NCBI GenBank assembly: GCA_964581105.1
Contig: CAZOMB010000004.1
Span: 672 to 64,671, forward strand
Length of the DNA: 64,000 nucleotides
Reading direction: 5' to 3'
DNA from: Candidatus Micrarchaeota archaeon
Lineage (GTDB): Archaea; Micrarchaeota; Micrarchaeia; Anstonellales; Anstonellaceae
Below, one piece after another: positions 1-46,255 of the stretch (position 1 is its first letter; each line of letters opens with the position of its first letter). Below the pieces are notes generated by a model, which was not told the origin of the DNA, did not search any database, and saw only the letters and a list, made by a program, of their open reading frames with translations. Both the position numbers and the translations under genes were made by a program.

Positions 1-677
1 CCTTTTTTCCCAATAAGAAGATGAAAGCCCTCTCTTTCCATTGAAAAGCTTTTTCCAAGCCTGCCCTTTTCAATTTGCCTGCAAAGAATATTGATTGCCC
101 TTGGCTCAATCAAATAAGCGCCAGTATTGAAAAGCCCTGTGCCCTTGCCCTGCTTTTCAAGAAACTGCTTTACCCTCATTGATTTTCCCAGCTTTATTTG
201 CCCTTTTCCAATTAGCGAGCCTTTCATTGCAAAAATCGTTGCAAGCGCTTTTTTCCTTTTATGGAACTTCAGGAACTTTTCTAAATCAAGGTCAATATAT
301 GTATCCCCATTCAGAACAAGGCATGTTTTCCTTATCTTTTGCCTTGCCATTGCAAGAGCGCCCCCTGTGCCAAGAGGCTTACTTTCCCTTGAATAGCTTA
401 TTCTCATTCCCCACTTTTTCCCTGTGCCGCAGTATTTTTTGATATCCTTGTGCCTGTATCCTGTGAGAAGCACTGCCTGTTTTATTCCTATTTTTGACAG
501 CTTTTCAAGCAAATGCCCCAAAAAAGGCCTTTTGCCTATTTTCACAAGGGGCTTTGGCACCTTGTAAGTGATGGGCCTTAGGCGCTTTCCAAAGCCGCCT
601 GCCAGTATTGCTGCCATTGCCTTATGCGAAGGTTTTTTTTCGCTTGCCAGAAGATTACCTCTTCCTAAAAGCAGCAT
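1..677 (-). CDS. Sugar-1-phosphate nucleotidyltransferase (NDP-sugar pyrophosphorylase). It is partial: the C-terminus lies beyond the window start. An alternative start is at 617.
   Basis: My own minus-strand translation gives ...MAAILAGGFGKRLRPITYKVPKPLVKIGKRPFL..., which carries the G-x-G-x-R-L-x-P nucleotidyltransferase signature. The frame stays open to position 1. This ORF is not in the supplied track. Confidence 0.6.
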   Translation of the reverse strand, partial: MLLLGRGNLLASEKKPSHKAMAAILAGGFGKRLRPITYKVPKPLVKIGKRPFLGHLLEKLSKIGIKQAVLLTGYRHKDIKKYCGTGKKWGMRISYSRESKPLGTGGALAMARQKIRKTCLVLNGDTYIDLDLEKFLKFHKRKKALATIFAMKGSLIGKGQIKLGKSMRVKQFLEKQGKGTGLFNTGAYLIEPRAINILCRQIEKGRLGKSFSMEREGFHLLIGKK

Positions 678-726: not shown

Positions 727-2367
727 ATGATTGATGAAAAGGAGCTTGCAAGCCCAAAGGAAATAGCAAAGGGCACAGCCTTTAGCCTTGCAGGAACCAT
801 GGTTTTCAAGCTGTTTTCCTTTCTTTACATAATATATATTGCGCGCGCAGTTTCACAAGGAGATATTGGCCTTTTTTGGCTTGCACTTGGGATAGTTGGG
901 CTTATAGGCGCATGGAGGGACATTGGCCTTCCTGCTGCCCTGACAAGGTATGTGCCTTTTTATGAGAGCAAAAAGCAGGCAGGAAAAATACTCGGGCTTT
1001 TGTACTCGTCATACATTGTAACTATTGCAACAGGCCTGCTTCTCACTGCATTGATGTGGCTTGGGGCTGAGCATATTGGTGCATTTTACCAAAACCCGCA
1101 GCTGGCAGATGCAATAAGGCTGATTTCATCATTCATGCTTCTTGAGACTGTTTTCAGGGTCAATGTCAGCTATTTGCAAGGAAGGGCAGACATAAAGTCA
1201 ATGCAGCTTTCGACAAACATACAAAATGTGCTGCGCTTTGCAATAACTGTCCTGTTTTTCCAGGTTTACGGAGTTTCGCTCTTCACCCTTATTGCAGCAT
1301 TCCTGAGCTCTTACCTTATTGCAATACTTGTTTCTGCGATTTTTGTGCACAGGAAGGTAACAGATTTGCCAAAAAGCAAGGCAACACTTTCCGCAAATGA
1401 GCTTATCAGTGAAATTGCGCCTTTTGGGCTTATGCTAAGCGCTTTGCAGCTTCTTTGGACAATCAGCTCTTATGCTGACAGGGTCATCCTTGGCTATTTA
1501 ATCCCCCCTCTTGAAGCAAGCTCTGCAGTTGCAATTTATTCAATGGCAGCGGCGCTTGCAATAAACATAATGGTATTTCCCGGGGCTGTTGGCTCTATTT
1601 TCATGCCAGTAATCTCCCGCATGTTTGGAAAAAATGACCTTGACTCAATGAGAAAGACGATGGGAACAGCGCAACGCTGGGTGCTTTTGCTCACTATTCC
1701 TGTTGCAATTGTAATGGTTGCATTTTCAGGGGAGATGATTTCCACCTTTTACGGAAGCGCATATTCCCCAGGCTCGATGGTAATGGCAATAATGGTGCTT
1801 GGCTTGCTTTGCTCTGCATTTGTTTATGCAATAATGCTGACCCTTGCAGGCATGAGGCTTGTAAAACTTGAGCTTAAGGTTGCCCTGATTGCAGGCATAA
1901 GCAATGTTGTGCTTGACTTTTTGCTTATACCCTATTTTGGCATTGAGGGCGCTGCAGCAGCATTTGCAATAAGCCTTTCCATATCTGCCATTCTCTTTAG
2001 CCATTATGGGTGGAAAGTCATAAAGTTCAGGACCCCGCCGGGCATTTATAGATTGTTTGCTGCAGGCGCAATAACCCTTGTTGCAGTATTGCTGCTAAAG
2101 CCAGCATTTGCATATGCTGCAACCCAGCTTCCTGCAATACAAATACAAGGGCTGCAGCAGTATTTTGCAAAAATACTTTACCTCGCACTTCTTGGAGTGG
2201 TTTCCCTGCTCTCGTCAATTGTTTTTGCTGCCCTTGCAATTGCCTTCAAGTGCTTTGAGGAACAGGATGCCACACTTGCGAAAAAGTTCTGCAAAAAGGC
2301 AAGAATCCCGAAGTTTGCAGCCAAACTTATTGAAACAGCGCTTCTGAAAGGGGTTGCAAATAAATAG
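727..2367 (+). CDS. Polysaccharide/oligosaccharide flippase, MOP (Wzx/RfbX-like) superfamily membrane protein
   Basis: It is a 546-aa polytopic membrane protein with about 12-14 hydrophobic helices. It lies in a locus of sugar-activation and glycosyltransfer genes. Confidence 0.55.
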   Translation: MIDEKELASPKEIAKGTAFSLAGTMVFKLFSFLYIIYIARAVSQGDIGLFWLALGIVGLIGAWRDIGLPAALTRYVPFYESKKQAGKILGLLYSSYIVTIATGLLLTALMWLGAEHIGAFYQNPQLADAIRLISSFMLLETVFRVNVSYLQGRADIKSMQLSTNIQNVLRFAITVLFFQVYGVSLFTLIAAFLSSYLIAILVSAIFVHRKVTDLPKSKATLSANELISEIAPFGLMLSALQLLWTISSYADRVILGYLIPPLEASSAVAIYSMAAALAINIMVFPGAVGSIFMPVISRMFGKNDLDSMRKTMGTAQRWVLLLTIPVAIVMVAFSGEMISTFYGSAYSPGSMVMAIMVLGLLCSAFVYAIMLTLAGMRLVKLELKVALIAGISNVVLDFLLIPYFGIEGAAAAFAISLSISAILFSHYGWKVIKFRTPPGIYRLFAAGAITLVAVLLLKPAFAYAATQLPAIQIQGLQQYFAKILYLALLGVVSLLSSIVFAALAIAFKCFEEQDATLAKKFCKKARIPKFAAKLIETALLKGVANK

Positions 2368-16479: not shown

Positions 16480-17349
16480 ATGCAGGTAATTACCAACACA
16501 GACCTGAAGCTCAAGCCATTTTCAAGAGGAAAAGTGAGGGAAACCTATGAGCTTGAGGATGGCAGCCTTCTCATGGTTGCAACTGACAGGCTCTCAGCAT
16601 TTGACGTTGTTTTTTCAGAAGGAATACCATACAAAGGAAAAGTGCTTACAGAGCTTTCCTTGTTCTGGTTCGAGAAACTCAAGGGCATTGTTGAGAATCA
16701 CCTTGTTTCATCAAATGTCCCAGAAGGATTGGCTGATTATCTTCAAGGAAGGAGCATGGTGGTGAAAAAGGCTGCGCCAATTATGCTTGAGTGCGTTGTT
16801 CGGGGCTATTTGGCAGGCTCTGGGCTAAAGGAGTACAATAAAAAAGGAACGGTTTGCGGCATAAAACTGCCTGCAGGGCTTCAAAACTCAAGCAAGCTGC
16901 CAGAGCCTATTTTTACCCCAAGCTCAAAAGCCACTGAAGGCCATGACATTAATTTGACTGAAGAGCAGGCAAAAAAAGAAGTAGGGGAAGAAACCTATGA
17001 AAAGCTAAAGCAACTGTCACTTAAAATCTACTCGACAGCAGCTGACTATGCAAAAGAAAAGGGGATAATTTTGGCAGACACAAAGTTTGAGTTTGGCATG
17101 CATGAGGATAAAATAATTTTGATTGATGAAGTATTGACTCCTGACTCAAGCAGGTATTGGCCTGCAAAAGAATATGAGGTTGGGAAAAACCAGCCTTCAT
17201 TTGACAAGCAGATTGTAAGGGATTATCTTGAAGGAACAGGTTGGAACAAATTGCCCCCAGCCCCAGCCCTTCCAAAAGAGGTAATAGAGAAAACTTCTAA
17301 AAAATACATGGAGGTTTATGAGCTTTTAACAGGAAAGAAATTTGAGTGA
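16480..17349 (+). CDS. purC: Phosphoribosylaminoimidazole-succinocarboxamide (SAICAR) synthase
   Basis: RGKVRETYELEDGSLLMVATDRLSAFD is the N-terminal PurC signature. Confidence 0.9.
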   Translation: MQVITNTDLKLKPFSRGKVRETYELEDGSLLMVATDRLSAFDVVFSEGIPYKGKVLTELSLFWFEKLKGIVENHLVSSNVPEGLADYLQGRSMVVKKAAPIMLECVVRGYLAGSGLKEYNKKGTVCGIKLPAGLQNSSKLPEPIFTPSSKATEGHDINLTEEQAKKEVGEETYEKLKQLSLKIYSTAADYAKEKGIILADTKFEFGMHEDKIILIDEVLTPDSSRYWPAKEYEVGKNQPSFDKQIVRDYLEGTGWNKLPPAPALPKEVIEKTSKKYMEVYELLTGKKFE

Positions 17350-17358
17350 GGTGTTTTT

Positions 17359-17784
17359 ATGGAACAAGTATTGATTTTGCTTGGGAGTAAATCAGATATG
17401 CCAATAGCAGAAAAAACAAAGCAAAAGCTTGACGAGCTTGGCATAGAAAATAAAGTTGAAATTGCCTCTGCGCACAGGACACCTGACTTGCTTGAAAAGC
17501 TGATTAAGCAAAGCAACGCAAAAGTGTTTATTGGAATAGCCGGGCTTTCGGCTGCTTTGCCAGGGGCAATAGCCTCAAAAACCAGCAAGCCAGTAATAGG
17601 AGTGCCTGTGAATGTGAAATTAGATGGGCTTGACGCTCTTCTTTCCACAATGCAAATGCCCCCAGGAGTGCCGGTTGCAACAGTGGGGATTGACAATGGA
17701 AAGAATGCAGCAATTTTAGCTGCCAGGATTCTTGCCCTGACCGACAAAAAGCTTGCTGAAAAGCTGACAACAACCCACGCCTAA
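17359..17784 (+). CDS. purE: N5-CAIR mutase / AIR carboxylase catalytic subunit
   Basis: [14 protein letters not shown]...[12 protein letters not shown] is the PurE signature. Confidence 0.9.
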
Positions 17785-17939: not shown

Positions 17940-18503
17940 TTGTTTTTCCCTGAAATTCTCAAAAAGTGCAAAAGAGGCCCGCAAGTGGTCCTGCCAAAAG
18001 ACATAGGGGTAATACTTGCTTTTTCAGGTGTTGGGAAAAATTCCCTTGTAATTGATGCGGGGGCAGGGTCTGGCTGGCTTGCAATAGCACTTGCAAACAC
18101 TGCAAAAAAGGTTGTCACTTATGAGTGGAGAGAGGAGTTTGCCTCTCTTTGCGAAAAAAATGCAAAGCGCGCTGGTGTTGAAAAGACCCTTTTAGTGAAA
18201 AGAAAGGATGCTTTTAAGGGATTTGAAGAAAAAAATGCTGATTTGGTCACTCTTGACATGGCAGATTCTGACAAACTGGTAAAACATGCATACAAAGCAC
18301 TGAAAAAAGGAGGCATGGTATTTGGCTATTTGCCGCATGTCGGGCAGGCGCAAAGGTTTTTTTCTGCATGCGAAAAGTCTGGGTTTGAAAAAATACATAT
18401 GGTTGAAAGCATTATGAGAAACTATCTTGTAAGAGATGTTGGAATAAGGCCTGAAAACACTGGGCTTACTCATACAGCTTATATTGTTTTTGCAGCAAAG
18501 TAA
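17940..18503 (+). CDS. SAM-dependent methyltransferase, tRNA (m1A) methyltransferase TrmI/Gcd14-like
   Basis: VIDAGAGSGWLAIALA is SAM-binding motif I. The overall layout resembles TrmI (COG2519). Confidence 0.65.
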   Translation: MFFPEILKKCKRGPQVVLPKDIGVILAFSGVGKNSLVIDAGAGSGWLAIALANTAKKVVTYEWREEFASLCEKNAKRAGVEKTLLVKRKDAFKGFEEKNADLVTLDMADSDKLVKHAYKALKKGGMVFGYLPHVGQAQRFFSACEKSGFEKIHMVESIMRNYLVRDVGIRPENTGLTHTAYIVFAAK

Positions 18504-18526: not shown

Positions 18527-19513
18527 ATGAAAGGAATGATAATCGTTCTTCTGCTTGCAGGGGCGCTGCTTTTTGCTGGGTGCATAATGCCAGTTTCACA
18601 GCCAGTAGTGCCAGAGCAGGAGGAACAAGAGGAACAAATGCCAGAACAAGTTGAAGAGGAGCAAGAAATGCCAGAGCAAGAGGAAGAAGCTGAAGAGGAA
18701 GCTCCTGTAGAAGAAGAGGAGGAAGAGCAGCAAGTGCAAGAAGATGGGTGCACAGTCGAGTTTCAGAAAGACTCATCAAACACATATTATGTAATGGTAA
18801 AAACAGAGTCTGAAAAGGAGCTGACAGTAACCTGCCCGAATGAAAAGCCTGCTGAAAAGAGAGGAGAACTTTTCTTTTGCACGCAGCTTTACATTGAAAA
18901 CCCTGCAATAGCATACCTTGACGGAGTTGAATGTGACAGGGCCCAGTTTTCAGATGCTCTACAGACACAAACAGAGCCAACTGGCCAAAGCTGCACTGTA
19001 ACGCTTGCTCCAGCAAGGATAACTGCTGGTGAAACCAGCGTTGTCACAGTAAAGGCATACATAGGGGATACAACCTCAGAAGTAAGCTATTTGTGCGGAA
19101 ATGAGGAGTCAACTGAAACAGGAAGCGGCCTATTAGACACTGGAAAAATATGCCAGTTTGACGAGCCTGGGACAATTGAAGTATATGCAAAGCTTGACGG
19201 AGAGATTTGCGCAACTGAGCTTTTGGAAGTATTTGCTGAGTCAAAGGGCTGCTCTGTTTATGGGAGCGAATCTTCAGAGGTTTCAGGAAAATACACATAT
19301 ACTGCAATAGTTGCTGGCAGGGGTTATAGTGGAAATGATGACCTTGCCTACAAGTGCTATGATGTTCCTTATGCAATAAAGGTAAGGGACATTCCAAACT
19401 CCACTGACTTTGTGACAACCATTGAGTGCAGCTCACGCGACGGGCCAATGGAAGAGAATGTTGATGTAACAGTCGGCGGAGACTATTGTGGGCAGCTAAA
19501 AGTCCAAAGCTAG
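18527..19513 (+). CDS. Secreted/lipoprotein with an acidic E/Q-rich low-complexity linker and a Cys-containing domain
   Basis: A signal peptide and lipobox-like LLFAGC are present. A PEQEEQEEQMPEQVEEEQEMPEQEEEAEEEAPVEEEEEEQQ tract follows. A T-rich terminator comes after the stop. Confidence 0.5.
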   Translation: MKGMIIVLLLAGALLFAGCIMPVSQPVVPEQEEQEEQMPEQVEEEQEMPEQEEEAEEEAPVEEEEEEQQVQEDGCTVEFQKDSSNTYYVMVKTESEKELTVTCPNEKPAEKRGELFFCTQLYIENPAIAYLDGVECDRAQFSDALQTQTEPTGQSCTVTLAPARITAGETSVVTVKAYIGDTTSEVSYLCGNEESTETGSGLLDTGKICQFDEPGTIEVYAKLDGEICATELLEVFAESKGCSVYGSESSEVSGKYTYTAIVAGRGYSGNDDLAYKCYDVPYAIKVRDIPNSTDFVTTIECSSRDGPMEENVDVTVGGDYCGQLKVQS

Positions 19514-19592
19514 CCCCTTTTTTTCTTTTTCTTTTCTTTTTTCCCTTAAAGACAACGAATATAAACCAGTTGCACCAAGAAATTACCAATGA

Positions 19593-22271
19593 ATGAAAAC
19601 CTTGTTTTTGAAGGTGGTTTGCATGAAGTGGTTTAGTATAATAGTTATAGTAGCTTTGGCTTCGTCTTTGGCATTTGCAGGAGCATATCCTGCTGTTGCT
19701 GCAAGCTATGAAGCATTTTCTGCAGACACCTATAGATTAGCAAGCTCTGAAGGGGATGTTGCCTGTGCTCCGACCGCTTCTGGGGACTGGCTATATGAAG
19801 GGGCAAAGCTCATTGAAATAAGAGCAGGAGAAGCGATTTTCGGAGGCCCTGATGACGTTATGACTGGAGATGATTATTTTGACAAAGTGTATTTTGACCC
19901 AATTGGATTGACAGTAAACGGCCAAGTACTAAATGGCCAGTATTACCAGGATCCGAACGTAAACAACTGGAAGCCAAGAGTATTCTGGAAAGTACCGGGA
20001 AGGGATTGCTATAACTGGAACCACTTTAGCATTAATACTCGAATTGGGGTGCCTGTGCTTGGAACCCCATTGCAAGGAGCATCATCAGGCATTACATACG
20101 CCAATCAGGCATCATTCCCTAGTTTGCCTCTTGGCAATTATCTAGTTGTAAATGAATACATTGGAGGACACGAAGGAATGGCATCAACATGGGTTCCCTA
20201 TATCGCAGAAAATCCATCTTATTCAACACATCGCTTTAAGCTAGAATCCCCTATCTCGCAAGTTTATTACTGGTCAGCTATCAATGCAGCTCACACATCA
20301 TATGAGCCTACTCTTGTAACTGAAAGGGGAAGCAAGTGGACCTCAATTTCAACTACAGATGTTTCAATGCTGCTTGCAAAACAGGTGGCAGAGCCAAGCT
20401 TCACATTTTCACAGGAAGGCTTATCAGGCACGCATGTTTTTTCTACTTTGATTACAGATACTCTTGACAGGACAACAAAAAACAGGCAAAACACACTTGT
20501 TGAAGATGAGTGGCGAGCAGAAATGAGTTCTCCAGATACAAATGGTTTAATAACTTCTCCATTAAGGGCAGTTGAAGGCAATACTGCAAAAGCAAAAAAT
20601 CTATACAGAATTGGTGAAACAGAGTTTCTTGGATTTGCTGATTATACAATGGAAGACCCACAAGCATCAGTGACATATACTGAAAAGCAAAGCTTTTGGG
20701 CAGGCTCAAGCCCAAACGGAGTTGCCTATGATTCTGACGTGGGAATCAGGGATGTTGCAGTAAATAAGTACACTGGGATTGCCTATAGCTCAAAGGTTGA
20801 TGGCAATGATTATGGAATCCCTGTTTGCACAGGCGACCTTTCACCTGGAGATGACTGGGCCTCTTGCCCTGAAAACTCAAACTCAAGAACAGAAAACCAC
20901 AGGGTAAAGATAATGCACTTTGGCTCTGAGTGGATAATAAGCAAAATGCAAAACCCAGAAACTGCTCTTGCAAGCTCTGTTTCTGTTGTGAATGGCGGCT
21001 TAGTAAATCTTGCAAAAGAGAGTGCATATGATATACTGAATGAAGGAGGCCAGGGACTTGCTGGGGGATATTATACTCTAAAGCTTGCAGGGGTGTTGCC
21101 TGACAATATTGCAGTTATTGACTTGTATAACCCTGACAACCAGCTTGTTGGCCAAATACAGGTTTCTGCTGGCACCACCTACACATTTACTTATGGGCAG
21201 GAGAGCATCAAAATGCATGTTTACAGCACAAATGCTGTCACTATATATGATGTGCCTGGCTGGGCAGAAGTAGGAGTTTACTCTGAAGAGATAGGGCTTT
21301 CAGACGGGTCACGATACAACCATGTCCCATCAACACACAAGGACAAAAACTTCAGGATTTCCCTTCTTTGGAAAAACAGGGATTATACTGGGGCTGAATC
21401 AAGCACAACTCCAGACTGCCTGCGTGAAATTGTTGTTTACCATGACTATTTAGATGGAAAAACAAAAAAAGGAGAAGAAAAGCACATGCTTGAAAGCTCC
21501 CCAACATTCACTTTGAGGTTTGACGGCATTGAACCTGATGTTTCTCCAATGTCTCCAGAACTACCAGTGTATGCCAACAACACAACAAACAGCAATACAT
21601 TGACAGTGCTTCCAAGCCCAGCAAATGCAGGCACTACATTTGACTCTGCGTATAATTTGCCATATGGAGCAGTTGTGCCAATAGGAGTTTCCTCAAACCC
21701 TGGCTATTCGTTTGCAGGCTGGAAGAGCAGCACAGGAAACTGCCCAACAATACTTAGCCCTGCTTTTGGCTGGGCTGCAGTAATTACCCCTGATTATGGC
21801 AACCAATGCTTGATTTGGGGAAAGTTCAACAGAGTTGGCACAAAACAAAGCTCAAACAATACAACGCAGATAGGGCCTGCAAGTGGAAGAGAACCATGCC
21901 CAATACTCGGATATACGCATTATGACTGCGAAGTTGCAGGAGGCGAATGGACTGATTCCAATAACTGCTACCACAAATGCGTTAAAAAGCCAACTCCGTC
22001 TTCCATTGGAGTTGCTAAAGACAAGGAAAAAGAGGGCTCAAAAACAAGCACAGGAAGTGCATCTGAGGCAGCGCCTTCAACTGGTGCTGCGCCTTCCGGG
22101 GAAAAGGGAGGCGAAACAACTTCAACAGGAAGCGCCTCTGCCTCAAGCGGCTCATCAGAATCATCTGTAGACGTATCAGATGTTGCAGGTGCAATGGTTG
22201 ATGTTGAAACAGACACCTATGCCAAACTGATGAATATACTTGGCATATATGTTGAGCAGTACCAGGAGTAA
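19593..22271 (+). CDS. Large secreted surface protein, paralog of the 43472-46255 S-layer candidate
   Basis: It has a signal peptide. Its blocks YEAFSADTYRLASSEGDVAC...FWKVPGRDCYNWNHFS and TLITDTLDRT...GNDYGIPVCTGDL...GSEWIISKM align with the 927-aa protein but in the opposite domain order. The C-terminus is Ser/Thr/Gly-rich. Confidence 0.6.
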   Translation: MKTLFLKVVCMKWFSIIVIVALASSLAFAGAYPAVAASYEAFSADTYRLASSEGDVACAPTASGDWLYEGAKLIEIRAGEAIFGGPDDVMTGDDYFDKVYFDPIGLTVNGQVLNGQYYQDPNVNNWKPRVFWKVPGRDCYNWNHFSINTRIGVPVLGTPLQGASSGITYANQASFPSLPLGNYLVVNEYIGGHEGMASTWVPYIAENPSYSTHRFKLESPISQVYYWSAINAAHTSYEPTLVTERGSKWTSISTTDVSMLLAKQVAEPSFTFSQEGLSGTHVFSTLITDTLDRTTKNRQNTLVEDEWRAEMSSPDTNGLITSPLRAVEGNTAKAKNLYRIGETEFLGFADYTMEDPQASVTYTEKQSFWAGSSPNGVAYDSDVGIRDVAVNKYTGIAYSSKVDGNDYGIPVCTGDLSPGDDWASCPENSNSRTENHRVKIMHFGSEWIISKMQNPETALASSVSVVNGGLVNLAKESAYDILNEGGQGLAGGYYTLKLAGVLPDNIAVIDLYNPDNQLVGQIQVSAGTTYTFTYGQESIKMHVYSTNAVTIYDVPGWAEVGVYSEEIGLSDGSRYNHVPSTHKDKNFRISLLWKNRDYTGAESSTTPDCLREIVVYHDYLDGKTKKGEEKHMLESSPTFTLRFDGIEPDVSPMSPELPVYANNTTNSNTLTVLPSPANAGTTFDSAYNLPYGAVVPIGVSSNPGYSFAGWKSSTGNCPTILSPAFGWAAVITPDYGNQCLIWGKFNRVGTKQSSNNTTQIGPASGREPCPILGYTHYDCEVAGGEWTDSNNCYHKCVKKPTPSSIGVAKDKEKEGSKTSTGSASEAAPSTGAAPSGEKGGETTSTGSASASSGSSESSVDVSDVAGAMVDVETDTYAKLMNILGIYVEQYQE

Positions 22272-22853: not shown

Positions 22854-24458
22854 ATGAGAGTCCTAATAGTTTGTTTGCTGCTTTTTTTGGCACCAATTTC
22901 ATTTGCAGGGGTTGAGTGGAGCTATTTGGCAACAGACTCAATAAACGGAAAAGTTGCAGTTGCCCAAAGCAGGGCGATTTTCACTTCTTATGACAACAAT
23001 GTTTATGCTGTAATGCTCCAAACAGGCACAATCTCATGGACCTATGACACTGGGGAAAAAATAATACTTGAGCCTGTGCTTGCAGATTCAAAAACAGTTG
23101 CAGTAGCAACAGAAACAGGCTCACTTATTTTCCTGAATGCCCAGGATGGCAGGAAAAAGCTGTCAATAGAAACCAGAAAACCGCCCCACTCAATCGCAGC
23201 AAGCTCTGGAATGGTTTTCCTTGCCTCAGAAAAAACAATAATGGCATTTGATTCATCAGGAGAATCAAAATGGAATGCAAGCTTTTCTGACATGCCAGGG
23301 CAAATAGGCACAAGCAATGAAGTTCTGTATGTCACTTCTGGGGGAAAAATGTATTGCATTGCAGCAAGCAGCGGGACAACAAAATGGATTTCAGCTTCTG
23401 AGGACTCTTTTCTTTCAAAGCCTGTTGAATACACTGGCACAGTTTACTTTGGGGCAACTGACCAGCGGCTTTATGCACTTGACCATTCGAGCGGAAAAGT
23501 GCGCTGGAGCTTTAAGACTGGTGGCTGGATCCTTTCAACCCCTGTGCAATCAGGAAATGCGATTTACTTTGGCTCAAATGACGGGTACCTTTACTCAATA
23601 ACAAAAGCAGGCCAGCTGCGCTTCAGGTTCAAGACAGGTGACGGCATATGGGGGGAGCCTTTGATACAAAATGATTTGGTGGTATTTGGCTCAAATGACG
23701 GCAACTTGTATGGAATTGACGCAAACACTGGGGAAGAGGCATGGTCATTTTCAGCAGGAGGAAGAATAGGCCCTCCTGTTGAGCACAATAATGCATTTTT
23801 GTTTGGAACAAGCAAAGGAAGGGTTTACCATCTTTCACCATCGCCAATCTGCAGCTTTACCTGGCCCTCAACAGGCGATGCTGTTGGAGACTGGCCACTT
23901 GATGTTGAGGGAAAGGCACGCTCTGATTCTGGAATATCAAAAGTCGAAATAAGGGTTGACAAAGGGGTTTGGGTGCCTGCTTATGGAGAGCAGGAGTGGC
24001 ATGCAAGCGCTGACTTTGCAGGCCTTGCCCAAGGAGCAGTAAAAGTTGAATGCAGGGCAACTGACAAATCAGGAAAAACTGAAACAGGGGATTATGCCTC
24101 AATAATACTTGTAAAAACAGAAAATGTACCTTTGCAGAAAATGTTTGTTTCAGCCCCATATGAGGTTGAGCCAAATGAGAGCTTTGAGCTTGGGATAAAG
24201 GACAGCAGGGGAAAGGATTTGCACAATGTTTTGCTGAAGATAGGGGAAACTGAAAAGCCTGGTGACAGCCCGTTTTTGATTACCCTTGGCAAAAGCGGTG
24301 AAGTGAAAATTGTGCTTGAAAAGCCTGGCTTTGGGCCTGAAGAGGCCATTATAAAGGGAAAAGGAGGGATTGACTTCACTCTTGTTCTTGGTGTATTGGT
24401 TGTCCTCATAATCGCAGGCGCTGCCTATATTGTGCTTGTGAAAAACAAAGGCACATAA
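22854..24458 (+). CDS. Secreted PQQ-like beta-propeller repeat protein with a C-terminal TM anchor
   Basis: It has a signal peptide. Repeated YAxD/GxxxW/F motifs (e.g. LYGIDANTGEEAWSF) are typical of PQQ/BamB-type propellers. The C-terminal hydrophobic helix is LVLGVLVVLIIAGAAYIVLV. Confidence 0.7.
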   Translation: MRVLIVCLLLFLAPISFAGVEWSYLATDSINGKVAVAQSRAIFTSYDNNVYAVMLQTGTISWTYDTGEKIILEPVLADSKTVAVATETGSLIFLNAQDGRKKLSIETRKPPHSIAASSGMVFLASEKTIMAFDSSGESKWNASFSDMPGQIGTSNEVLYVTSGGKMYCIAASSGTTKWISASEDSFLSKPVEYTGTVYFGATDQRLYALDHSSGKVRWSFKTGGWILSTPVQSGNAIYFGSNDGYLYSITKAGQLRFRFKTGDGIWGEPLIQNDLVVFGSNDGNLYGIDANTGEEAWSFSAGGRIGPPVEHNNAFLFGTSKGRVYHLSPSPICSFTWPSTGDAVGDWPLDVEGKARSDSGISKVEIRVDKGVWVPAYGEQEWHASADFAGLAQGAVKVECRATDKSGKTETGDYASIILVKTENVPLQKMFVSAPYEVEPNESFELGIKDSRGKDLHNVLLKIGETEKPGDSPFLITLGKSGEVKIVLEKPGFGPEEAIIKGKGGIDFTLVLGVLVVLIIAGAAYIVLVKNKGT

Positions 24459-40412: not shown

Positions 40413-43118
40413 GTGAGCATGGCAGCAGCAAGGCAGGTAAAAGGCATGGGCAGGCAGAAAATGCTTGCAATGGTGCAAATGCTCAAAAGCGATGAAAACC
40501 TCGGGGATGCACTGCTGGTTGCGCTTGGCACGCTTTTCCTGCTTTCATCATTCATTTTTTATCCCCTTTATCTGGTGCCAGTGCTTGCTGCAATAACAGG
40601 CGCAATTGCTTACAAAAAGCCGCCATTAGGGACAATTGCTGCAATGTTCATAGCATTTCCAGCAGTTGCATATCAGGCGCCTGTTCTTGCCTGGGTATTT
40701 ACCCTGGCAATAGCAATAACCTTGTTTGAGGCATGGAACCATTGGAGCACAATCTCATTTTTGCAAATAGCAATACTTGCGCCGTTTGCCGCCTTTCCAT
40801 TTTCTCTGCTTTCCGGCTTTTTGTTCTTGGCCTTGGGAATTGCTGCCTTAAGGTTTGGAAGCAGTCACAGCTTTGCAGTCTCATTGCCAGCAATTTTTGT
40901 TGTTCTTTTGCTCTCTTCAGTATGGATGCAGCCAACAGAATCTTTCATAACAATATCAAACCAGTACTTGTCGCTTTATTCGCCAGCAATGGCCCAGCTT
41001 CAGAACAGCGCTTTGCCAGAGGTTGGGATTTTTGAGATGGCACCAGCAGCAGGAGGGGCAATTGCATCGATTTTCAGTGCGCAAAGCATAATTGCAGTTT
41101 CCCCTGCCCTTGGAAAACTTGTGAGCAATGCCTATCTTCTGATTTTCCAGGACTATGCAATTATCCAGCTGCTGGTATGGGCTGTTGCACTTTTTGTTTG
41201 CGCATTTTTGCCTGCAAGGCTTGACAGAGAGTACAAGCAGTCAATCTCATGCCTTGCCCTGTTCCTTGTGCCAATAACAAACTTTTTTGTTGCGCCTGCT
41301 TTTAACAACCCGTTTGACAGCATTTCATTTGCCTATTGCGCAGCATCAGTTGCAATAGTATTTGCAATGGAGCACTATGGCTTCAAGCTGAGCAGGGAAA
41401 GGATTGTGATGAGAAGGCAAAAGCAAAAGGCATTTGGAAAGTTTGGCATCCAAGACCTTGGAGATTCAGCAGGAGTTGAGTCGCTTGAGGATGTTGGGGG
41501 CTATAAGGACGTAAAAACAGAGCTGCAGGAGGCAATAATATCCCCAATAAAGAAAAAAGAGCTTGCCTATACATATGGGATAAAGCCCCCAAACGGAATT
41601 TTGCTTTTTGGCCCGCCTGGCACAGGAAAAACTTTGCTGATGAAAGCCCTTGCAAAGGAGCTGAATATTGGGTTTTATTATGTCAAGTGCTCTGACCTTT
41701 TGTCAGAGTGGTACGGGGAAAGCGAAAAAAACCTTTCAGAGGTATTTGCAAGCGCAAGAAAGAATGCGCCTTGCGTGCTTTTTTTTGATGAGATAGATTC
41801 CATTGGAAAAAAGAGAGACTCTTACACTTCTGACGACGTAGCCCCAAGAATAATGAGTGTGCTGCTGCAAGAGCTTGACGGATTTAGGGAAAAGAAAAAG
41901 ACTGTGATAACTATAGGGGCAACAAACATACCTGACCAGCTGGACCCTGCCTTGATGAGGCCTGGCAGGTTTGACAAGATAATTTACATGCCATTGCCAG
42001 ATGAGGCAGCAAGAAAAGCAATCTTTAAGGTGCATTTGAAAAAGCTGCCAGTTGACCAGGACCTTGACTTTGCAAAGCTGGCTGCAAAAACAAAAAGATA
42101 TTCTGGGGCAGACATAAAAAATATCTGCACAGAGGCAACCCGCCTTGCTGCAAAAGAGGCAGTAAAATCAGACGTTGTTGTGCCTGTGTCAATGAAACAC
42201 ATTCTTTCAACAATAAAAAAGCTCAAGCCTTCTGTCTCGCTATCCTCAATTGAGACTTACAAGAAGTTTAGGATGGATTATGAAAGAAGAAGCGAGGCAC
42301 AGGAAAAAAGCCCTGATGCAAAAGGAGTGCGCTGGGAAGATGTTGCAGGCCTTAAAGAGGTCAGAAGAGAGCTGCTTGAATCTATTGAGATTCCTCTTCT
42401 CCACGAGGACTTGATGAAAGACATGGATGTCCAGCCAAGCAAAGGATTGCTTCTTTTTGGCCCGCCTGGCTGCGGAAAAACAATGATAGTAAAGGCAGCT
42501 GCAAATGAGCTTAATGCAAACTTTCTCACAATATCAGGCGCAGAGCTTATGAAAGACAGGAGCAAAAGTCCCTCAGCCCATGTAAAGGAGATATTTAACA
42601 GGGCAAGAGAATCAGCGCCAGCCCTGATTTTCATTGACGAAATAGAAGCCTTGGCACCAAGCAGGGACCAGTACAGGGGGGGAATCCTTACTGAGCTTTT
42701 GCAGGAGCTTGACGGGATAAATGAGCTGAAAAATGTGCTTCTTGTCGGCGCAACAAACAAGCCAGGCACACTTGATGCTGCAATTTTAAGGCCTGGCAGG
42801 TTTGACAAGATAATTTACATACCGCCTCCAGACGAGCCTGCAAGGAAAAAGATATTTACAATAAATTTGGCAAAATTCCTGAAAGCAGTGAGCCTTGACA
42901 GGCTGGCAAAAGCAAGCGAGGGCTTTTCAGGCGCTGACATTGCCTCTGTATGCCAAAAGGCAAAAATGCAGATGGTAAGAAACAGGTTGAGAGGAAAGCC
43001 CTCAGCACTGAAAACAGCAGACGTAATAAGGATAATTGAAAAGAGAAGGCCATCAATAACGCAAAAGGCCTTGAGAAACTATTTTGCATTCATGCAGGAA
43101 TATGGCGAAAGAAAGTAA
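40413..43118 (+). CDS. Membrane-anchored Cdc48/VCP-like double-AAA ATPase (N-terminal polytopic domain, then D1 and D2 AAA modules)
   Basis: About 330 aa carrying 8-10 hydrophobic helices come first. [14 protein letters not shown]...[12 protein letters not shown] is D1 and [14 protein letters not shown]...[10 protein letters not shown] is D2. Both have second-region-of-homology arginines (PGRFDKIIY twice). Confidence 0.8.
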
Positions 43119-43471: not shown

Positions 43472-46255
43472 ATGAAAGGGATAAACGTAAAGAAAATTGC
43501 GGCCCTTGCCGGCACGGGTATCCTTTTGGGAGCCAGCTTAGGTTTCGCCGATGTAGTATATGGCGACACCCAGGTTGTTGACCAGAATGGACAACCGACA
43601 GTAAAGGTTTATGTCGGCAGCGCAGCAGCAATCTCTGACGGTGTGGCAGCAGCCAACATCGCAGCAAAGATTGCAAACGAGGCATATATGAGCTCGACTC
43701 TGACTGCCTCAGTGAGCGGAGACCCGACCTGCACAGTCGGATCTGACGTTGGTGGAACTGGAACTTGCGAACTCGTTGAGAGCAGCAAGACAGTTACTCT
43801 TGAAGTAACCCTGCCAGGAAGCATTGCAGGAACCCACCAGTTTAAGACGCTCATAACAGACACGGTTGACAGGACCCTGCAAAACAGGAATGCCACAAGG
43901 TCTGAGGACAACTATACCTCAACCATGGGCTCTTCTGACACGTCAGGTGCACTTACTTCACCGCTTAGGGCGGTAGAAGGAGACACTGCAAGGGCAAAGA
44001 ACCTTTACAAGATTGGTTCTGGCCAATTCACTGGCTTTGCTGACTACTCTATGGTAGACACACAGGCAGTGAGCACCACGTACACTGAAGAGCAGAACTT
44101 TTGGGTTGGCTCTACTGTGGGCGGTGTTAAGTATGATTCCTCTTCAGCATATAGGGACATCATAGTTAACAAGTTCAGAGCAATGGCCTATAACCTGAAG
44201 TTCACTGGTAATGACTATGGTATTCCAGTGTGCACTGGAGACCTTAACTCAACCCTATCTGACGACTGGACGAGTTGCGCAACTGACTCCAACTCAAGGA
44301 CTGACAGGCACAGGCTTAAGCTTAAGTTCCTGGGTTCTGAGTGGATAATCAGTGAAATGAATGACCCTGTCCTCACAATGAGGAGCCAGGTCAATGCAAC
44401 CAGCGGAGGAACTGTCAAGCTTGCCAAAGAGGCAAAGTATGGCATTGTCCAGGTCGGAGGAGTGCTCGACGCAGGAACATTCCAGATCAGGCTGTCAGAC
44501 ATTTCAGTCGCAGTCGGAGCTGCAAATGTGCACCCTGCAATCATTGACGTGCTCGACGCCAACGAGGCAGTCGTAGGACAGATTCAGGTCGACCCAGGCT
44601 CTACCTATACTTTCACTCAGAGCGGAACTGGCAACACAGTGAAGATTCACGTGTATAAGACTGCGCCAGGTTTCACACTGAACGCAAAGTGGGCAGAGAT
44701 GGCAATCTACTCTGATGAGGTTACCCTTAAGGATGGCCAGAGATACAACCTTGTTTCATCCACTGACACTGACAAGAACTTTAAGGTGTCTTTGATTTGG
44801 AAGAACAGGGACTTTACTGGCTCAACAGGAGGAAACGACTCATCTGCAGACTCACTTCGTGAGATCGTTGTGTATAACATTGACGGTCTTGACAGCAAAG
44901 TGGCTGCAGGAGATGTTGTAAACTTCCTTGAGGCAGCACCAACATTTAAGCTGACCTACAATGGGCTTGACCTTACTGACGACGACTACCAGCCTCTTAC
45001 ATATGACGCTCTGTCACCAGACACATACCGTGTTGCAACCACCACAGGTGATGTTGCATGCGGCGCAACAAGTGCTGCTGACTGGTCATATGCAGACGCC
45101 AAGTGGGTTGAGATAAAGACTGGCGGAGTCCAGCTTCTCGGAGGAAGTGGCACCAACCTTATCAATGGTGGCTACTTGCTTGAGAAGGTTTACTTTGACC
45201 CAATCGGTAGATACAACAACAGCAGCTCAACCTTTAATGGGACCTTTAACCAGAGCGTGCGGAAGGAGATGTGGAACCCCACTATCTTCTGGAAGGTTTC
45301 AGGAAGGGACTGCTATAACTGGAACAGCTTTAGCTACGAAGGTGCAGCATACACAACCACTGACTCAAACGCAGTTAGGTTTGAGACAGCCGGCGACAAC
45401 ACTGCTGCACTTGGTGGAATCTTCTTCACCAACAATTCAACCCTTACGACAACTGCCTCTGATACGGCAAGTTTCCAGGGAGCAATTGTTCTGAAAGAAG
45501 ACGCTGGCTACTATGGATTGACCAGCAACAACGCAGTGTACACTGCTATACCGTATATTGCAAACGGAAGCAGCAGCACAAGCGGAACCAACCCCTTCAG
45601 GTTTAGGACTGCGGACTCATCTACTCAGCAGGCATATTACAACTCGCTTGCTGGCGGTATCTGGTTCACAGGCTATGAGCCAACATTTGTAAGTGAGAGG
45701 GGATCAAAGGTTACCAGCGTTGGAACCACTGACGCAGACTTCAAGGTTGCAAAGAGAGTCGGACTCGCGGAGTTCAACTTTGCCTTTGCAGACACCTCAG
45801 CCGCAACCGGCGGAGAGGAATATGTGCTTGGAGTTGGCGACAGCAAAGTGTTTGGTGGCGTGACTGTATTGGTCAAGGCCATTGACGCTGATTGCGGAAG
45901 CTGCTCAGTTCTCGGCCCAGGCGGAACACCTGCATGCACTGTTGACACAACAGACCTTACTGCTGTGATTAACCCGAACAACGCGGCATCTGTTGAGGTA
46001 ACTGAACCTTACAAGCTGACCTCTAACATGGTCATGCTTGACACAGATGGCCCAAGCGCTGGCGTGGCAATTACAGTCGGTGGACCTGCTGTCAACACAA
46101 TGACTGCAGACGCTCTCCAAGACTCAAGTGTTGACTTCAACGTTGACACTGTAGTCGTTAAGGAGGTCGGCAACAAGATAGTTGTTGCAGGACTGACTGC
46201 TGAGGACACTTTGACTGCTGCAGACCAGTTTATTGCTGGTGTGAAGAGGCAGTAA
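43472..46255 (+). CDS. Major cell-surface (S-layer candidate) protein, 927 aa
   Basis: It has a signal peptide. Codon usage is strongly NNC/NNG-biased (GAC, AAC, AAG, TTC, TAC), unlike the rest of the window. It has a long leader and strong promoter. A hairpin plus oligo-T terminator follows. A paralog lies at 19593-22271. Confidence 0.6.
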   Translation: MKGINVKKIAALAGTGILLGASLGFADVVYGDTQVVDQNGQPTVKVYVGSAAAISDGVAAANIAAKIANEAYMSSTLTASVSGDPTCTVGSDVGGTGTCELVESSKTVTLEVTLPGSIAGTHQFKTLITDTVDRTLQNRNATRSEDNYTSTMGSSDTSGALTSPLRAVEGDTARAKNLYKIGSGQFTGFADYSMVDTQAVSTTYTEEQNFWVGSTVGGVKYDSSSAYRDIIVNKFRAMAYNLKFTGNDYGIPVCTGDLNSTLSDDWTSCATDSNSRTDRHRLKLKFLGSEWIISEMNDPVLTMRSQVNATSGGTVKLAKEAKYGIVQVGGVLDAGTFQIRLSDISVAVGAANVHPAIIDVLDANEAVVGQIQVDPGSTYTFTQSGTGNTVKIHVYKTAPGFTLNAKWAEMAIYSDEVTLKDGQRYNLVSSTDTDKNFKVSLIWKNRDFTGSTGGNDSSADSLREIVVYNIDGLDSKVAAGDVVNFLEAAPTFKLTYNGLDLTDDDYQPLTYDALSPDTYRVATTTGDVACGATSAADWSYADAKWVEIKTGGVQLLGGSGTNLINGGYLLEKVYFDPIGRYNNSSSTFNGTFNQSVRKEMWNPTIFWKVSGRDCYNWNSFSYEGAAYTTTDSNAVRFETAGDNTAALGGIFFTNNSTLTTTASDTASFQGAIVLKEDAGYYGLTSNNAVYTAIPYIANGSSSTSGTNPFRFRTADSSTQQAYYNSLAGGIWFTGYEPTFVSERGSKVTSVGTTDADFKVAKRVGLAEFNFAFADTSAATGGEEYVLGVGDSKVFGGVTVLVKAIDADCGSCSVLGPGGTPACTVDTTDLTAVINPNNAASVEVTEPYKLTSNMVMLDTDGPSAGVAITVGGPAVNTMTADALQDSSVDFNVDTVVVKEVGNKIVVAGLTAEDTLTAADQFIAGVKRQ

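Follow-up and report, generated by a model that had tools for sequence, protein, structure and literature searches.

A secreted paralog of the Micrarchaeota S-layer protein with permuted modules and without the anchor domain

Introduction

Two genes of one protein type, lying in a stretch of 64,000 nucleotides from a Candidatus Micrarchaeota archaeon (hereafter the window), raise the question of how the second came to carry the modules of an S-layer protein in another order, and of what such a protein could do at the cell surface. The S-layer protein of Micrarchaeota is represented by SLP_Mh of Ca. Micrarchaeum harzensis, with 52 homologues in 38 genomes; permuted paralogs are not described in that study (Gfrerer et al., bioRxiv 10.1101/2021.04.28.441871). 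Micrarchaeota and other DPANN archaea live attached to host cells, and their surface proteins are obvious candidates for host contact. Almost nothing is known about Micrarchaeota surface proteins other than the main S-layer protein.

The gene, its copies and its codon usage

The window holds just two copies of this protein type, the 892-aa paralog and the 927-aa S-layer protein, as found by tblastn with each of them as query. The longer open reading frame of the paralog is present as called in an ORF check of the window, and the second ATG, at 19623, is the likelier start and the one used in public gene calls (P0001). Ahead of it is GAAGGTGG, similar to a Shine-Dalgarno site, and a TATA-like AATATAAA is located at 19558-19565. 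Table 1 presents the features of both genes.

Table 1. Features of the permuted paralog, of its upstream context and of the S-layer gene in the window
Feature	Position	Strand	Remarks
purC	16480-17349	+	syntenic context upstream of the paralog, common to A→B genes P0097 and P0003
purE	17359-17784	+	syntenic context upstream of the paralog, common to A→B genes P0097 and P0003
GCD14-like methyltransferase	17940-18503	+	syntenic context upstream of the paralog, common to P0097 and P0003
Permuted paralog ORF	19593..22271	+	892 aa from ATG 19593; 882 aa from ATG 19623
Signal peptide MKWFSIIVIVALASSLAFA, aa 11-29	19623..19679	+	predicted cleavage after A-F-A motif; hydropathy scan
Block A, aa 38-273	19704..20411	+	homologous to S-layer aa 510-771
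A-B junction Q-E-G, three residues	20412..20420	+	last A strand PSFTFS to first B strand THVFSTLITDT
Block B, aa 277-654	20421..21554	+	homologous to S-layer aa 118-510
'b' sub-domain of block B, about aa 494-584	21072..21344	+	beta-sandwich
Variable C-terminal tail, aa 655-892	21555..22268	+	pLDDT below 30 (AF2)
Sub-family-specific C-terminal peptide ...DTYAKLMNILGIYVEQYQE	22188..22268	+	unique within the window
S-layer protein gene, 927 aa	43472..46255	+	unpermuted paralog, architecture N-B-A-C
Anchor/dimerisation domain, N-terminal half, about aa 27-75	43550..43696	+	profile 37-73 ~ 9FSA 14-50
Block B in S-layer protein, aa 118-510	43823..45001	+	alignment to paralog
Block A in S-layer protein, aa 510-771	44999..45784	+	alignment to paralog
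Anchor/dimerisation domain, C-terminal half, about aa 830-927	45959..46252	+	profile 832-912 ~ 9FSA 58-148

The possibility that the gene is an artefact or a decaying pseudogene has a negligible probability. An identical protein is encoded on 9 contigs from several samples, and the intact homologs, about 21 in number, retain conserved cysteines and 70-plus invariant residues. Since these homologs are independent metagenomic sequences with the same module order, an assembly artefact is ruled out.

The preliminary description had credited the paralog with ordinary codons, and codon statistics agree with it: the paralog has a GC3 of 0.356 and lies at an RSCU distance of 0.32 from the background, whereas the S-layer gene, the most deviant of 17 genes, reaches 0.517 and 0.49. 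This codon usage suggests that the paralog is expressed less than the S-layer gene.

Swapped order of the modules

BLASTP of the two proteins against each other yields two alignments that are not collinear. Block B aligns residues 277-654 of the paralog with residues 118-510 of the 927-aa protein (50% identity, E=2e-120), and block A aligns residues 38-273 with residues 510-771 (35% identity, E=4e-40). An internal repeat or a register shift was considered as the cause of the swapped order and rejected: the hhalign probability of block A against block B is 0.3%, so the two blocks are mutually unrelated and the swap is real. The paralogy and the circular permutation put forward in the preliminary description are thus upheld by the pairwise alignment, in which the similarity is permuted and no collinearity is seen, by the block order mapped on 94 homologs, and by the lack of self-similarity between A and B. 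The same description had block B following block A in the paralog, which is correct, and had it at the N-terminus of the 927-aa protein, which is not strictly so: 117 residues precede it there, with the signal peptide, the N-terminal anchor half and a connector.

The gene is a paralog of the Micrarchaeota S-layer protein, and its product is secreted and not membrane-anchored. Its architecture is signal peptide, block A, block B and tail. The N-terminal signal peptide is the sole hydrophobic segment of the protein, and secretion without a transmembrane anchor is read from the hydropathy scan and the A-x-A motif only. All family members have an equivalent N-terminus, with a conserved A-x-A motif, followed by YPVVPxTYxALSADTYR.

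The similarity to the central module of the S-layer protein is significant over the full length of A and B and includes two conserved cysteine pairs, with Cys58/Cys139 of block A aligning with Cys530/Cys614, and Cys412/Cys425 of block B with Cys254/Cys269. These cysteine pairs are also in line with a secreted protein. In block B, 77 alignment columns are at least 90% conserved with an identical residue in the S-layer and A→B families, beside 66 positions specific to the S-layer proteins and 38 specific to the A→B proteins. The AF2 models of both proteins are confident in A and B, pLDDT being mostly 75-92 in block A of the paralog. No Pfam or PDB relative of block A was found. The 'b' sub-domain of block B has been amplified in relatives to tandem arrays (ABbbb, bbABbbbbbb, bbbbb).

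The boundaries of the blocks carry the signature of a circular permutation, in that the old termini are closed by a short linker and the new termini lie at the old inter-module linker. The junction reads PSFTFS-QEG-LSGTHVFSTLITDT and is flanked by strands at residues 269-274 and 280-285 in the AF2 model; it represents the closure of the old ends of the nested module, the end of A and the start of B. The new termini fall exactly at the old linker between B and A: the mature N-terminus YPAVAASYEAFSADTYR is the counterpart of the S-layer linker YQPLTYDALSPDTYR, and the end of block B, ...TFTLRFDGI, is the counterpart of ...TFKLTYNGL.

The C-terminal tail has a stretch (aa 676-716) that weakly resembles InlB-B repeats, another rich in Cys, a low-complexity linker rich in S/T and a conserved C-terminal peptide, which is common to the paralog, P0003, P0008, P0015, P0120, P0167 and P0180. 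This peptide (DTYAKLMNILGIYV) bears only a vague resemblance to the S-layer C-terminal helix, a resemblance on which no claim rests. The A and B blocks of the paralog harbor no sequon, versus 12 in the S-layer protein. A difference in N-glycosylation was dropped as a family trait, since the absence of sequons is not general in the family.

A conserved family with the A→B order

The paralog belongs to a conserved and previously undescribed family. An exhaustive search gave 319 cluster representatives, 26 of them with the A→B order, and the core family comprises about 21 members, all from Micrarchaeota. In a neighbour-joining tree of block B, the core members group apart from the S-layer proteins (99/100 and 98/100 bootstraps). 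The window protein is placed within their group and has the same succession of signal peptide, block A, short junction and block B. In all core members, a signal peptide is the single hydrophobic segment, a membrane anchor is lacking and the tail is variable. All A→B proteins have 2-8 aa between the last strand of A and the first strand of B. Tail length ranges from 3 to >580 aa across the family, many members being nearly tail-less. These proteins form a conserved second family built from the S-layer's own lattice modules, without the anchor.

The A→B unit is also found inside giant beta-helix and DsbA-containing surface proteins. The cargo carried by relatives includes PKD domains (P0007), DsbA together with CARDB (P0098), and NosD-like beta-helix arrays (P0095, P0099). 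The modules occur in other combinations as well, namely AA, AAaA, b-arrays, B-b-b-A and B-A without an anchor.

A→B proteins are confined to a subset of the Micrarchaeota in which the S-layer gene occurs; a contig scan for homologous loci gave 12 loci, which are too few for a taxonomic census. Two conserved A→B loci were recognized, purC/purE-methyltransferase-A→B gene, which is that of the window, and GT2-CTP-transferase-A→B gene-aaRS-KaiC-MJ0538. Their flanks are mainly housekeeping genes, and neither provides a conserved-operon clue to function. The A→B gene evolves fast, whereas its neighbours are 87-94% identical.

The split anchor domain and its loss

The 927-aa protein carries the anchor of its class, matching PF05124 and TIGR01564 and resembling 9FSA. 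PF05124 matches it as a single stretch over aa 38-922, and the S-layer family profile matches 9FSA in two pieces, an N-terminal one (37-73) and a C-terminal one (832-912). In the engineered protein 9FSA, aa 24-75 and aa 484-576 of the Methanococcus voltae S-layer protein are fused through GGS, and the construct is described as the dimeric anchor of that protein (PMC11410804). It is also the top Foldseek match of the model of the 927-aa protein (probability 1.00). The N- and C-terminal ends of the S-layer protein form one discontinuous anchor/dimerisation domain, with the B-A module nested inside it.

No PF05124, TIGR01564 or PDB match was obtained for the 892-aa protein, which therefore lacks the anchor typical of the Methanococcales-type family. 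An anchor remnant hidden in the tail was searched for with hmmsearch and rejected, as profiles of the N and C parts, made from 64 S-layer proteins, gave E>0.2 for all A→B proteins. At the level of sequence profiles, the paralog has completely lost the anchor/dimerisation domain.

This loss bears on the suggestion, made in the preliminary description, that the paralog may be an alternative or minor envelope protein. An alternative S-layer would build its own two-dimensional lattice and replace the main S-layer protein in some conditions. Both lattice-type modules are kept, as this reading requires. However, the domain responsible in this S-layer class for two-fold (dimer) contact and for cell attachment is wholly gone, and the paralog is thus not a like-for-like alternative S-layer. 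The codons are ordinary, unlike those of a very abundant protein, the gene is restricted to part of the S-layer-bearing Micrarchaeota, and tails of such unequal length are hard to fit into a regular lattice. An alternative S-layer is, on these grounds, very unlikely. A minor envelope protein is a plausible reading.

Sequence exchange with the S-layer gene

Sequence comparison shows repeated exchange of block A or B between A→B genes and the S-layer gene at conserved loci (P0019, P0097). P0019 is at a conserved locus, but along its block A all 40-aa windows are S-layer-like. P0097 sits in the same purE-methyltransferase locus as the gene studied here, and its blocks share 56-63% identity with the S-layer protein P0079, whose own block A reaches no more than 52% with other S-layer proteins. 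Copy and parent are thus shown to be still exchanging sequence.

General concerted evolution was considered and rejected. In the two known same-genome pairs, the paralog shows no excess similarity to its own S-layer protein, and the DNA of the two genes of the window shares only patches of 66-69%. Conversion therefore appears episodic and not continuous, and co-evolution with the S-layer is episodic at best.

Origin of the permutation

The nesting of the central module explains why the permutation is structurally easy. As B-A is inserted in the anchor domain, its two ends would be spatial neighbours; a duplication of the gene, followed by deletion of the C- and N-terminal anchor halves, would then give a circular permutant, which could fold because the ends of nested B-A adjoin in space. 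The nesting in a domain whose insertion points can be bridged by GGS, as in 9FSA, lends indirect support to a similar three-dimensional arrangement of the modules in both proteins. Module nesting in a split domain would thus be a structural reason why domain order could rotate.

Another origin, possible though doubtful, is that A and B are modules with independent mobility, which recombined to A→B, perhaps several times, by fission/fusion or exon-shuffling-like recombination, with no duplication and closure. The many combinations of modules described above fit such mobility, as do the signal peptide of the paralog, which has no relation to the one in the S-layer protein, and the lack of tandem S-layer genes in the loci examined and of B-A-B-A intermediates. 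In addition, trees do not unite the A→B proteins in a single group (7/100 bootstrap). Against this, all A→B proteins share the same strand boundaries and a junction of 2-8 residues, and the termini lie at the old linker, which is the signature expected of closing spatially adjacent ends. The shared gene neighbourhood of P0097 and the window gene favours one old locus with gene conversion over many origins. On a common origin of the A→B proteins as a whole, the evidence is divided between the low bootstrap value of the tree and a synteny that suggests one old locus.

Proposed role of the paralog

A secreted, anchor-less paralog that keeps the lattice modules is probably an accessory or cargo-display subunit associated with the S-layer, and not a second S-layer. 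The paralog keeps the lattice ('canopy') modules and would be unable to make the anchor-mediated two-fold contact. Most likely, it would associate with the S-layer of its own cell or insert into it at low stoichiometry. A-B might serve as a docking scaffold from which the C-terminal tail, or large beta-helix, DsbA or PKD cargo in relatives, is presented. As many members are almost tail-less, cargo display is not the whole function.

A rather unlikely alternative is that the protein is a free secreted effector or adhesin, either released or host-binding, in which A-B is a mere stable beta-rich scaffold and acts independently of the cell's own S-layer. The signal peptide combined with the lack of any kind of anchor, the variable and fast-evolving tails, the adhesin-like cargo of relatives (PKD, beta-helix, CARDB), the rapid evolution of the gene beside well-conserved neighbours, the lack of general co-evolution with the S-layer protein of the same genome and the ectosymbiotic lifestyle of Micrarchaeota are all in line with it. 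However, the conservation of block B at the same positions as in the S-layer family exceeds what a scaffold needs, many members carry no cargo at all, and the repeated replacement of blocks by S-layer sequence makes more sense if the protein needs to fit the S-layer.

The S-layer-associated role can be extended further, in a form that is speculative and in itself unlikely. A→B proteins would be dedicated 'plug-in' S-layer subunits, in which the permutation shifts the termini from the membrane-facing side, the site of anchor attachment, to a different face of the canopy, so that a lattice-seated subunit shows variable cargo (adhesins, beta-helix arrays, a DsbA-like oxidoreductase) to the environment or the host, and block-wise conversion keeps the fit to a fast-evolving lattice. 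If true, an archaeal S-layer would be functionalised here in a manner not described before, and DPANN archaea would have a candidate system for host contact. Concrete targets for further study are the two blocks, their junction and the C-terminal peptide.

Comparison with known systems

The closest known system is the Micrarchaeota S-layer protein itself, represented here by the 927-aa ORF. The paralog resembles it in blocks A and B and their two cysteine pairs, in its Sec-type signal peptide, in the absence of a transmembrane helix and in its acidic pI. It differs in the swapped order of A and B, the absence of the split N- and C-terminal anchor and of two connectors, a different signal peptide, an added variable C-terminal tail and ordinary codons.

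Through its N- and C-terminal segments, the 927-aa protein also belongs to the Methanococcales/Thermococcales-type S-layer proteins (M. voltae Q50833, 9FSA; PF05124/PF05123, TIGR01564; SymProFold, PMC11410804), whereas the 892-aa paralog fails every model that defines the Methanococcales-type family. Modules A and B have no detectable sequence relative in Methanococcales/Thermococcales-type S-layer proteins, Pfam or PDB.

Arbing et al. reportedly described in 2012 the Methanosarcina S-layer tile protein (MSTP, DUF1608), of which many paralogs are said to be fused to other surface domains. These paralogs are similar to the A→B family in concept, as domains of the type found in the main S-layer lattice are reused with other domains in accessory surface proteins. 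To our knowledge, they have not been described as permuted in order or as having lost a split anchor domain. An MSTP-like fold has been stated for Micrarchaeota S-layer proteins (bioRxiv 10.1101/2024.05.28.596244). In the present analysis, neither sequence searches nor Foldseek gave a match to DUF1608 structures.

Finally, Weiner and Bornberg-Bauer are said to have described in 2006 how circular permutation at the domain level arises by duplication and fusion, for example in DNA methyltransferases. The paralog shares with such multidomain permutations the rotated modules, the old termini joined by a short linker and the new termini at an inter-domain linker. It is unlike them in that the permuted unit was nested in a domain that was lost at the same time, and in that the permuted copy and its parent still exchange sequence block by block. 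The paralog provides a clean natural example of a domain-level circular permutation coupled to the loss of the enclosing domain.

Permuted order of two modules

The 892-aa protein and the 927-aa S-layer protein are paralogs whose two large modules, blocks A and B, stand in swapped order, as the preliminary description had proposed. Their pairwise alignment is permuted rather than collinear, and BLASTP returns two strong non-collinear matches, residues 277-654 against 118-510 for block B (50% identity, E=2e-120) and residues 38-273 against 510-771 for block A (35% identity, E=4e-40). Since hhalign shows no relationship between A and B (probability 0.3%), the swap is genuine and does not come from a shift in the register of repeats. 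The same description's claim that the paralog gene uses ordinary codons also holds; the S-layer gene (GC3 0.517) has the most biased and deviant codon usage of the 17 genes tested. No further copies or fragments of either protein occur within the 64-kb window, which is archaeal with a G+C content of about 44%. All named homologs of both proteins come from Candidatus Micrarchaeota/Micrarchaeia metagenome bins, and nine contigs from several samples carry the identical paralog protein.

The paralog lies in a small surface-protein gene cluster interleaved with housekeeping genes, a placement that follows from the adjoining 328-aa and PQQ beta-propeller proteins. The former has no Pfam match and is missing from the syntenic locus of P0097, a homologous protein.

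Features of the paralog, the S-layer protein and other genes (window positions unless stated otherwise)
Feature	Location	Strand	Description
purC	16480
purE	17359-17784
Methyltransferase	17940
328-aa secreted protein	18527-19513	+	Directly upstream of paralog; lipobox-like signal (…LLFAGC), long Glu/Gln-rich acidic linker, Cys-rich body
Paralog	19593-22271	+	ORF of 892 aa
Paralog, public start	ATG 19623	+	Internal ATG of public gene calls (P0001, 882 aa); GAAGGTGG just ahead
Signal peptide	aa 11-29
Block A			After signal peptide
Junction			Three residues between A and B: …PSFTFS-QEG-LSGTHVFSTLITDT…
Block B			After junction
Tail			238 aa, left disordered by AF2
C-terminal peptide	22188-22268 (aa 866-892)	+	DTYAKLMNILGIYVEQYQE; one occurrence in window
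Ribosomal protein L11	22315-22812	+	Downstream of paralog
PQQ-type beta-propeller	22854-24458	+	After L11; secreted, Big_7 domain, C-terminal transmembrane helix
Double-AAA ATPase	40413-43118		Upstream of S-layer gene; Cdc48-like, long multi-pass membrane N-terminus
S-layer gene	43472-46255	+	927 aa; strong ribosome-binding site GAGGTGA
Anchor, N piece	profile 37-73		9FSA chain residues 14-50
Anchor, C piece	profile 832-912		9FSA chain residues 58-148
701-aa secreted protein	46424-48529		Downstream of S-layer gene; C-terminal membrane segments, no Pfam match
aRF1 (peptide chain release factor)	53899-55593	+	Interrupted by mini-intein; Pfam Intein_splicing at aa 193-343, between eRF1 domains 1 and 2
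940-aa secreted protein	60954-63776	-	Cys-rich, no Pfam match; repeated 'SCA.NT..V..TD.N.F…C.DDC…YEC..SSCTCTK' units, thrombospondin-type-3-like Asp-rich stretch
771-aa S-layer variant	L012 3402-5717		Homolog locus of uncultured archaeon LFW-35

The split anchor of the parent and its loss in the paralog

Matches to Pfam PF05124 and TIGR01564, together with the S-layer annotation carried by dozens of orthologs, identify the 927-aa product as the Micrarchaeota S-layer protein, in agreement with the one that has experimental support in Ca. Micrarchaeum harzensis (bioRxiv 10.1101/2021.04.28.441871). The PF05124 match forms one stretch from residue 38 to 922, and a profile of 64 S-layer orthologs matches a single PDB entry, 9FSA, in two pieces. 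This entry, an engineered fusion via Gly-Gly-Ser of Methanococcus voltae S-layer residues 24-75 and 484-576, is the solved structure of the "dimeric anchor", which makes up the two-fold axis in the M. voltae lattice (PMC11410804). It is also the top Foldseek match (probability 1.00) of the AF2 model of the 927-aa protein (pLDDT 78.9). The B-A module is therefore nested in a discontinuous domain, with insertion points a few ångströms apart, and the parent architecture is signal peptide, N half of the anchor, connector, B-A, connector, C half of the anchor. Model confidence is low in both connectors (residues 73-118 and 777-850), as would suit flexible tethers.

The paralog has lost this anchor completely: it gives no PF05124, TIGR01564 or PDB match, and the anchor N and C profiles score E>0.2 against it. 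Translated from ATG 19623, it opens with a typical signal peptide, its sole hydrophobic segment, and it keeps both cysteine pairs of the S-layer modules, which fits an extracellular protein. Its mature N-terminus, YPAVAASYEAFSADTYR, corresponds to the linker between B and A in the S-layer protein, YQPLTYDALSPDTYR, and block B ends at the same point in both (…TFTLRFDGI in the paralog, …TFKLTYNGL in the S-layer protein). The protein was thus opened precisely where the linker between the modules had been, and its closure joins the two former ends of the nested module. In its tail, a weak InlB-B-repeat-like stretch, a Cys-rich stretch and an S/T-rich linker are recognisable besides a conserved C-terminal peptide. 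This peptide stands at the extreme C-terminus in a subset of the family (also P0003, P0008, P0015, P0120, P0167 and P0180), always behind a linker rich in S/T or Cys, and may act as a signal for sorting or docking.

The A→B family

Among 94 homologs at 90% clustering, about 21 have the order signal peptide-A-B-tail and 68 the N-B-A-C order of the parent. Across 1.84 billion cluster representatives, an exhaustive HMM search gave 319 relatives, and the block HMMs were mapped onto 235 of them. Some 125 are of S-layer type and 26 have the A→B order; the others include several anchor-less but unpermuted B-A proteins (e.g. P0064 and the L012 ORF of 771 aa), A-only repeats and arrays of the "b" sub-domain of B. 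Neither block has a family in Pfam or a solved relative in the PDB.

The junction is conserved in all A→B proteins, with the last strand of A (xFxF), 2-8 residues and the first strand of B (xxFxTLIxD). Their tails vary from 3 residues (P0019) to more than 580, and may be short and Lys/Ala/Glu-rich, carry Cys-rich repeats with the C-terminal peptide D[TS]YAK[LI]MN[IV]LG[IV]YV, or contain PKD domains. The unit also occurs inside very large secreted proteins, with DsbA-like thioredoxin and CARDB domains in P0098 (1803 aa) and with NosD-type beta-helix arrays in P0095 (3729 aa) and P0099 (2836 aa).

Two further arrangements were seen. The "b" sub-domain (about 90 aa, block-B profile positions about 494-584) recurs in tandem, 3-7 copies per array, in P0005, P0095, P0126, P0156, P0208 and P0235, whether or not the remainder of B is present, and behaves as an independently amplifiable beta-sandwich repeat. 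The L012 variant retains the S-layer-type signal peptide, here directly before B, and the last residues …AQAAIKRQ, with a Pro/Gln/Val-rich repeat in place of most of the anchor; it looks like an independent, unpermuted anchor loss.

Origin of the permutation and exchange with the S-layer gene

Nesting in the anchor domain would place the two ends of B-A next to each other. A duplication could then have joined A from the first copy to B from the second, and deletion of the intervening C and N anchor halves would leave a foldable protein. The short, invariant A-B junction fits this proposed duplication-deletion origin. Shuffling of autonomous modules, which would also yield the A→B order, remains a rival, since neither B-A-B-A intermediates among the mapped homologs nor tandem S-layer genes at the loci examined were found.

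In block-B trees, the core A→B family, including the paralog, stands apart from all S-layer proteins (99/100 and 98/100 bootstraps). The family evolves fast: identity is 87-94% for the neighbouring genes but about 45-76% for the A→B proteins at the conserved locus GT2-CTP-transferase-A→B gene-aaRS-KaiC-MJ0538. Mosaicism with the S-layer gene in P0019 and P0097 shows that sequence has been exchanged. P0019 occupies this conserved locus (L005, compared with L001, L002, L004 and L006-L008); each 40-aa window of its block A resembles S-layer proteins more than it does any A→B protein (0.60-0.82 vs 0.47-0.68), and its block B begins with A→B-like sequence (0.78 vs 0.65). A short S-layer-like tract was also noted in block B of P0014 (windows 241-300). 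P0097, of A→B order, lies directly 3' of purE and a GCD14-like methyltransferase gene, an arrangement like that of the window, where the extra secreted-protein gene separates methyltransferase and paralog; P0003 lies between ubiA and purC, both of which also flank the window locus. Despite this synteny, the P0097 blocks share 56-63% identity with a single S-layer protein, P0079, whose own block A reaches no more than 52% with other S-layer proteins and 42% with that of the window.

Most simply, a single old A→B locus would have been overwritten blockwise in some lineages with sequence from the S-layer gene. Independent permutation on several occasions is a viable alternative, because the A→B proteins taken together do not come out as one group in the trees (7/100 bootstraps). 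Between the paralog and the S-layer gene of the window genome, no sign of recent conversion was seen.

Function

The modules kept by the paralog build the canopy in this S-layer class (PMC11410804; bioRxiv 10.1101/2024.05.28.596244). The domain that makes the two-fold contact and cell attachment is absent, from which we infer that the paralog is not able to act as a second S-layer of the same kind. Most economically, it would be an accessory subunit that docks to the S-layer, or fills occasional lattice positions, and presents its own tail or cargo. The 77 block-B positions identical in both families, the cargo-bearing relatives and the recurrent homogenisation with the S-layer gene indirectly support such an accessory subunit; its main rival is a free adhesin or effector.

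Comparison with known systems

Circular permutation at the domain level is a known evolutionary process, and accessory surface proteins that reuse S-layer lattice domains are known in principle, as in the DUF1608 paralogs of Methanosarcina. Full-text searches on circular permutation in archaeal S-layer proteins and on DPANN S-layer paralogs gave no account of the A→B family, and the Micrarchaeota S-layer paper, with 52 homologues in 38 genomes, does not mention permuted ones (bioRxiv 10.1101/2021.04.28.441871). The parent is a member of the Methanococcales-type S-layer family. The models that define that family do not match the paralog, which should be kept out of it and belongs to a new family, specific to Micrarchaeota, whose defining feature is the A→B unit.
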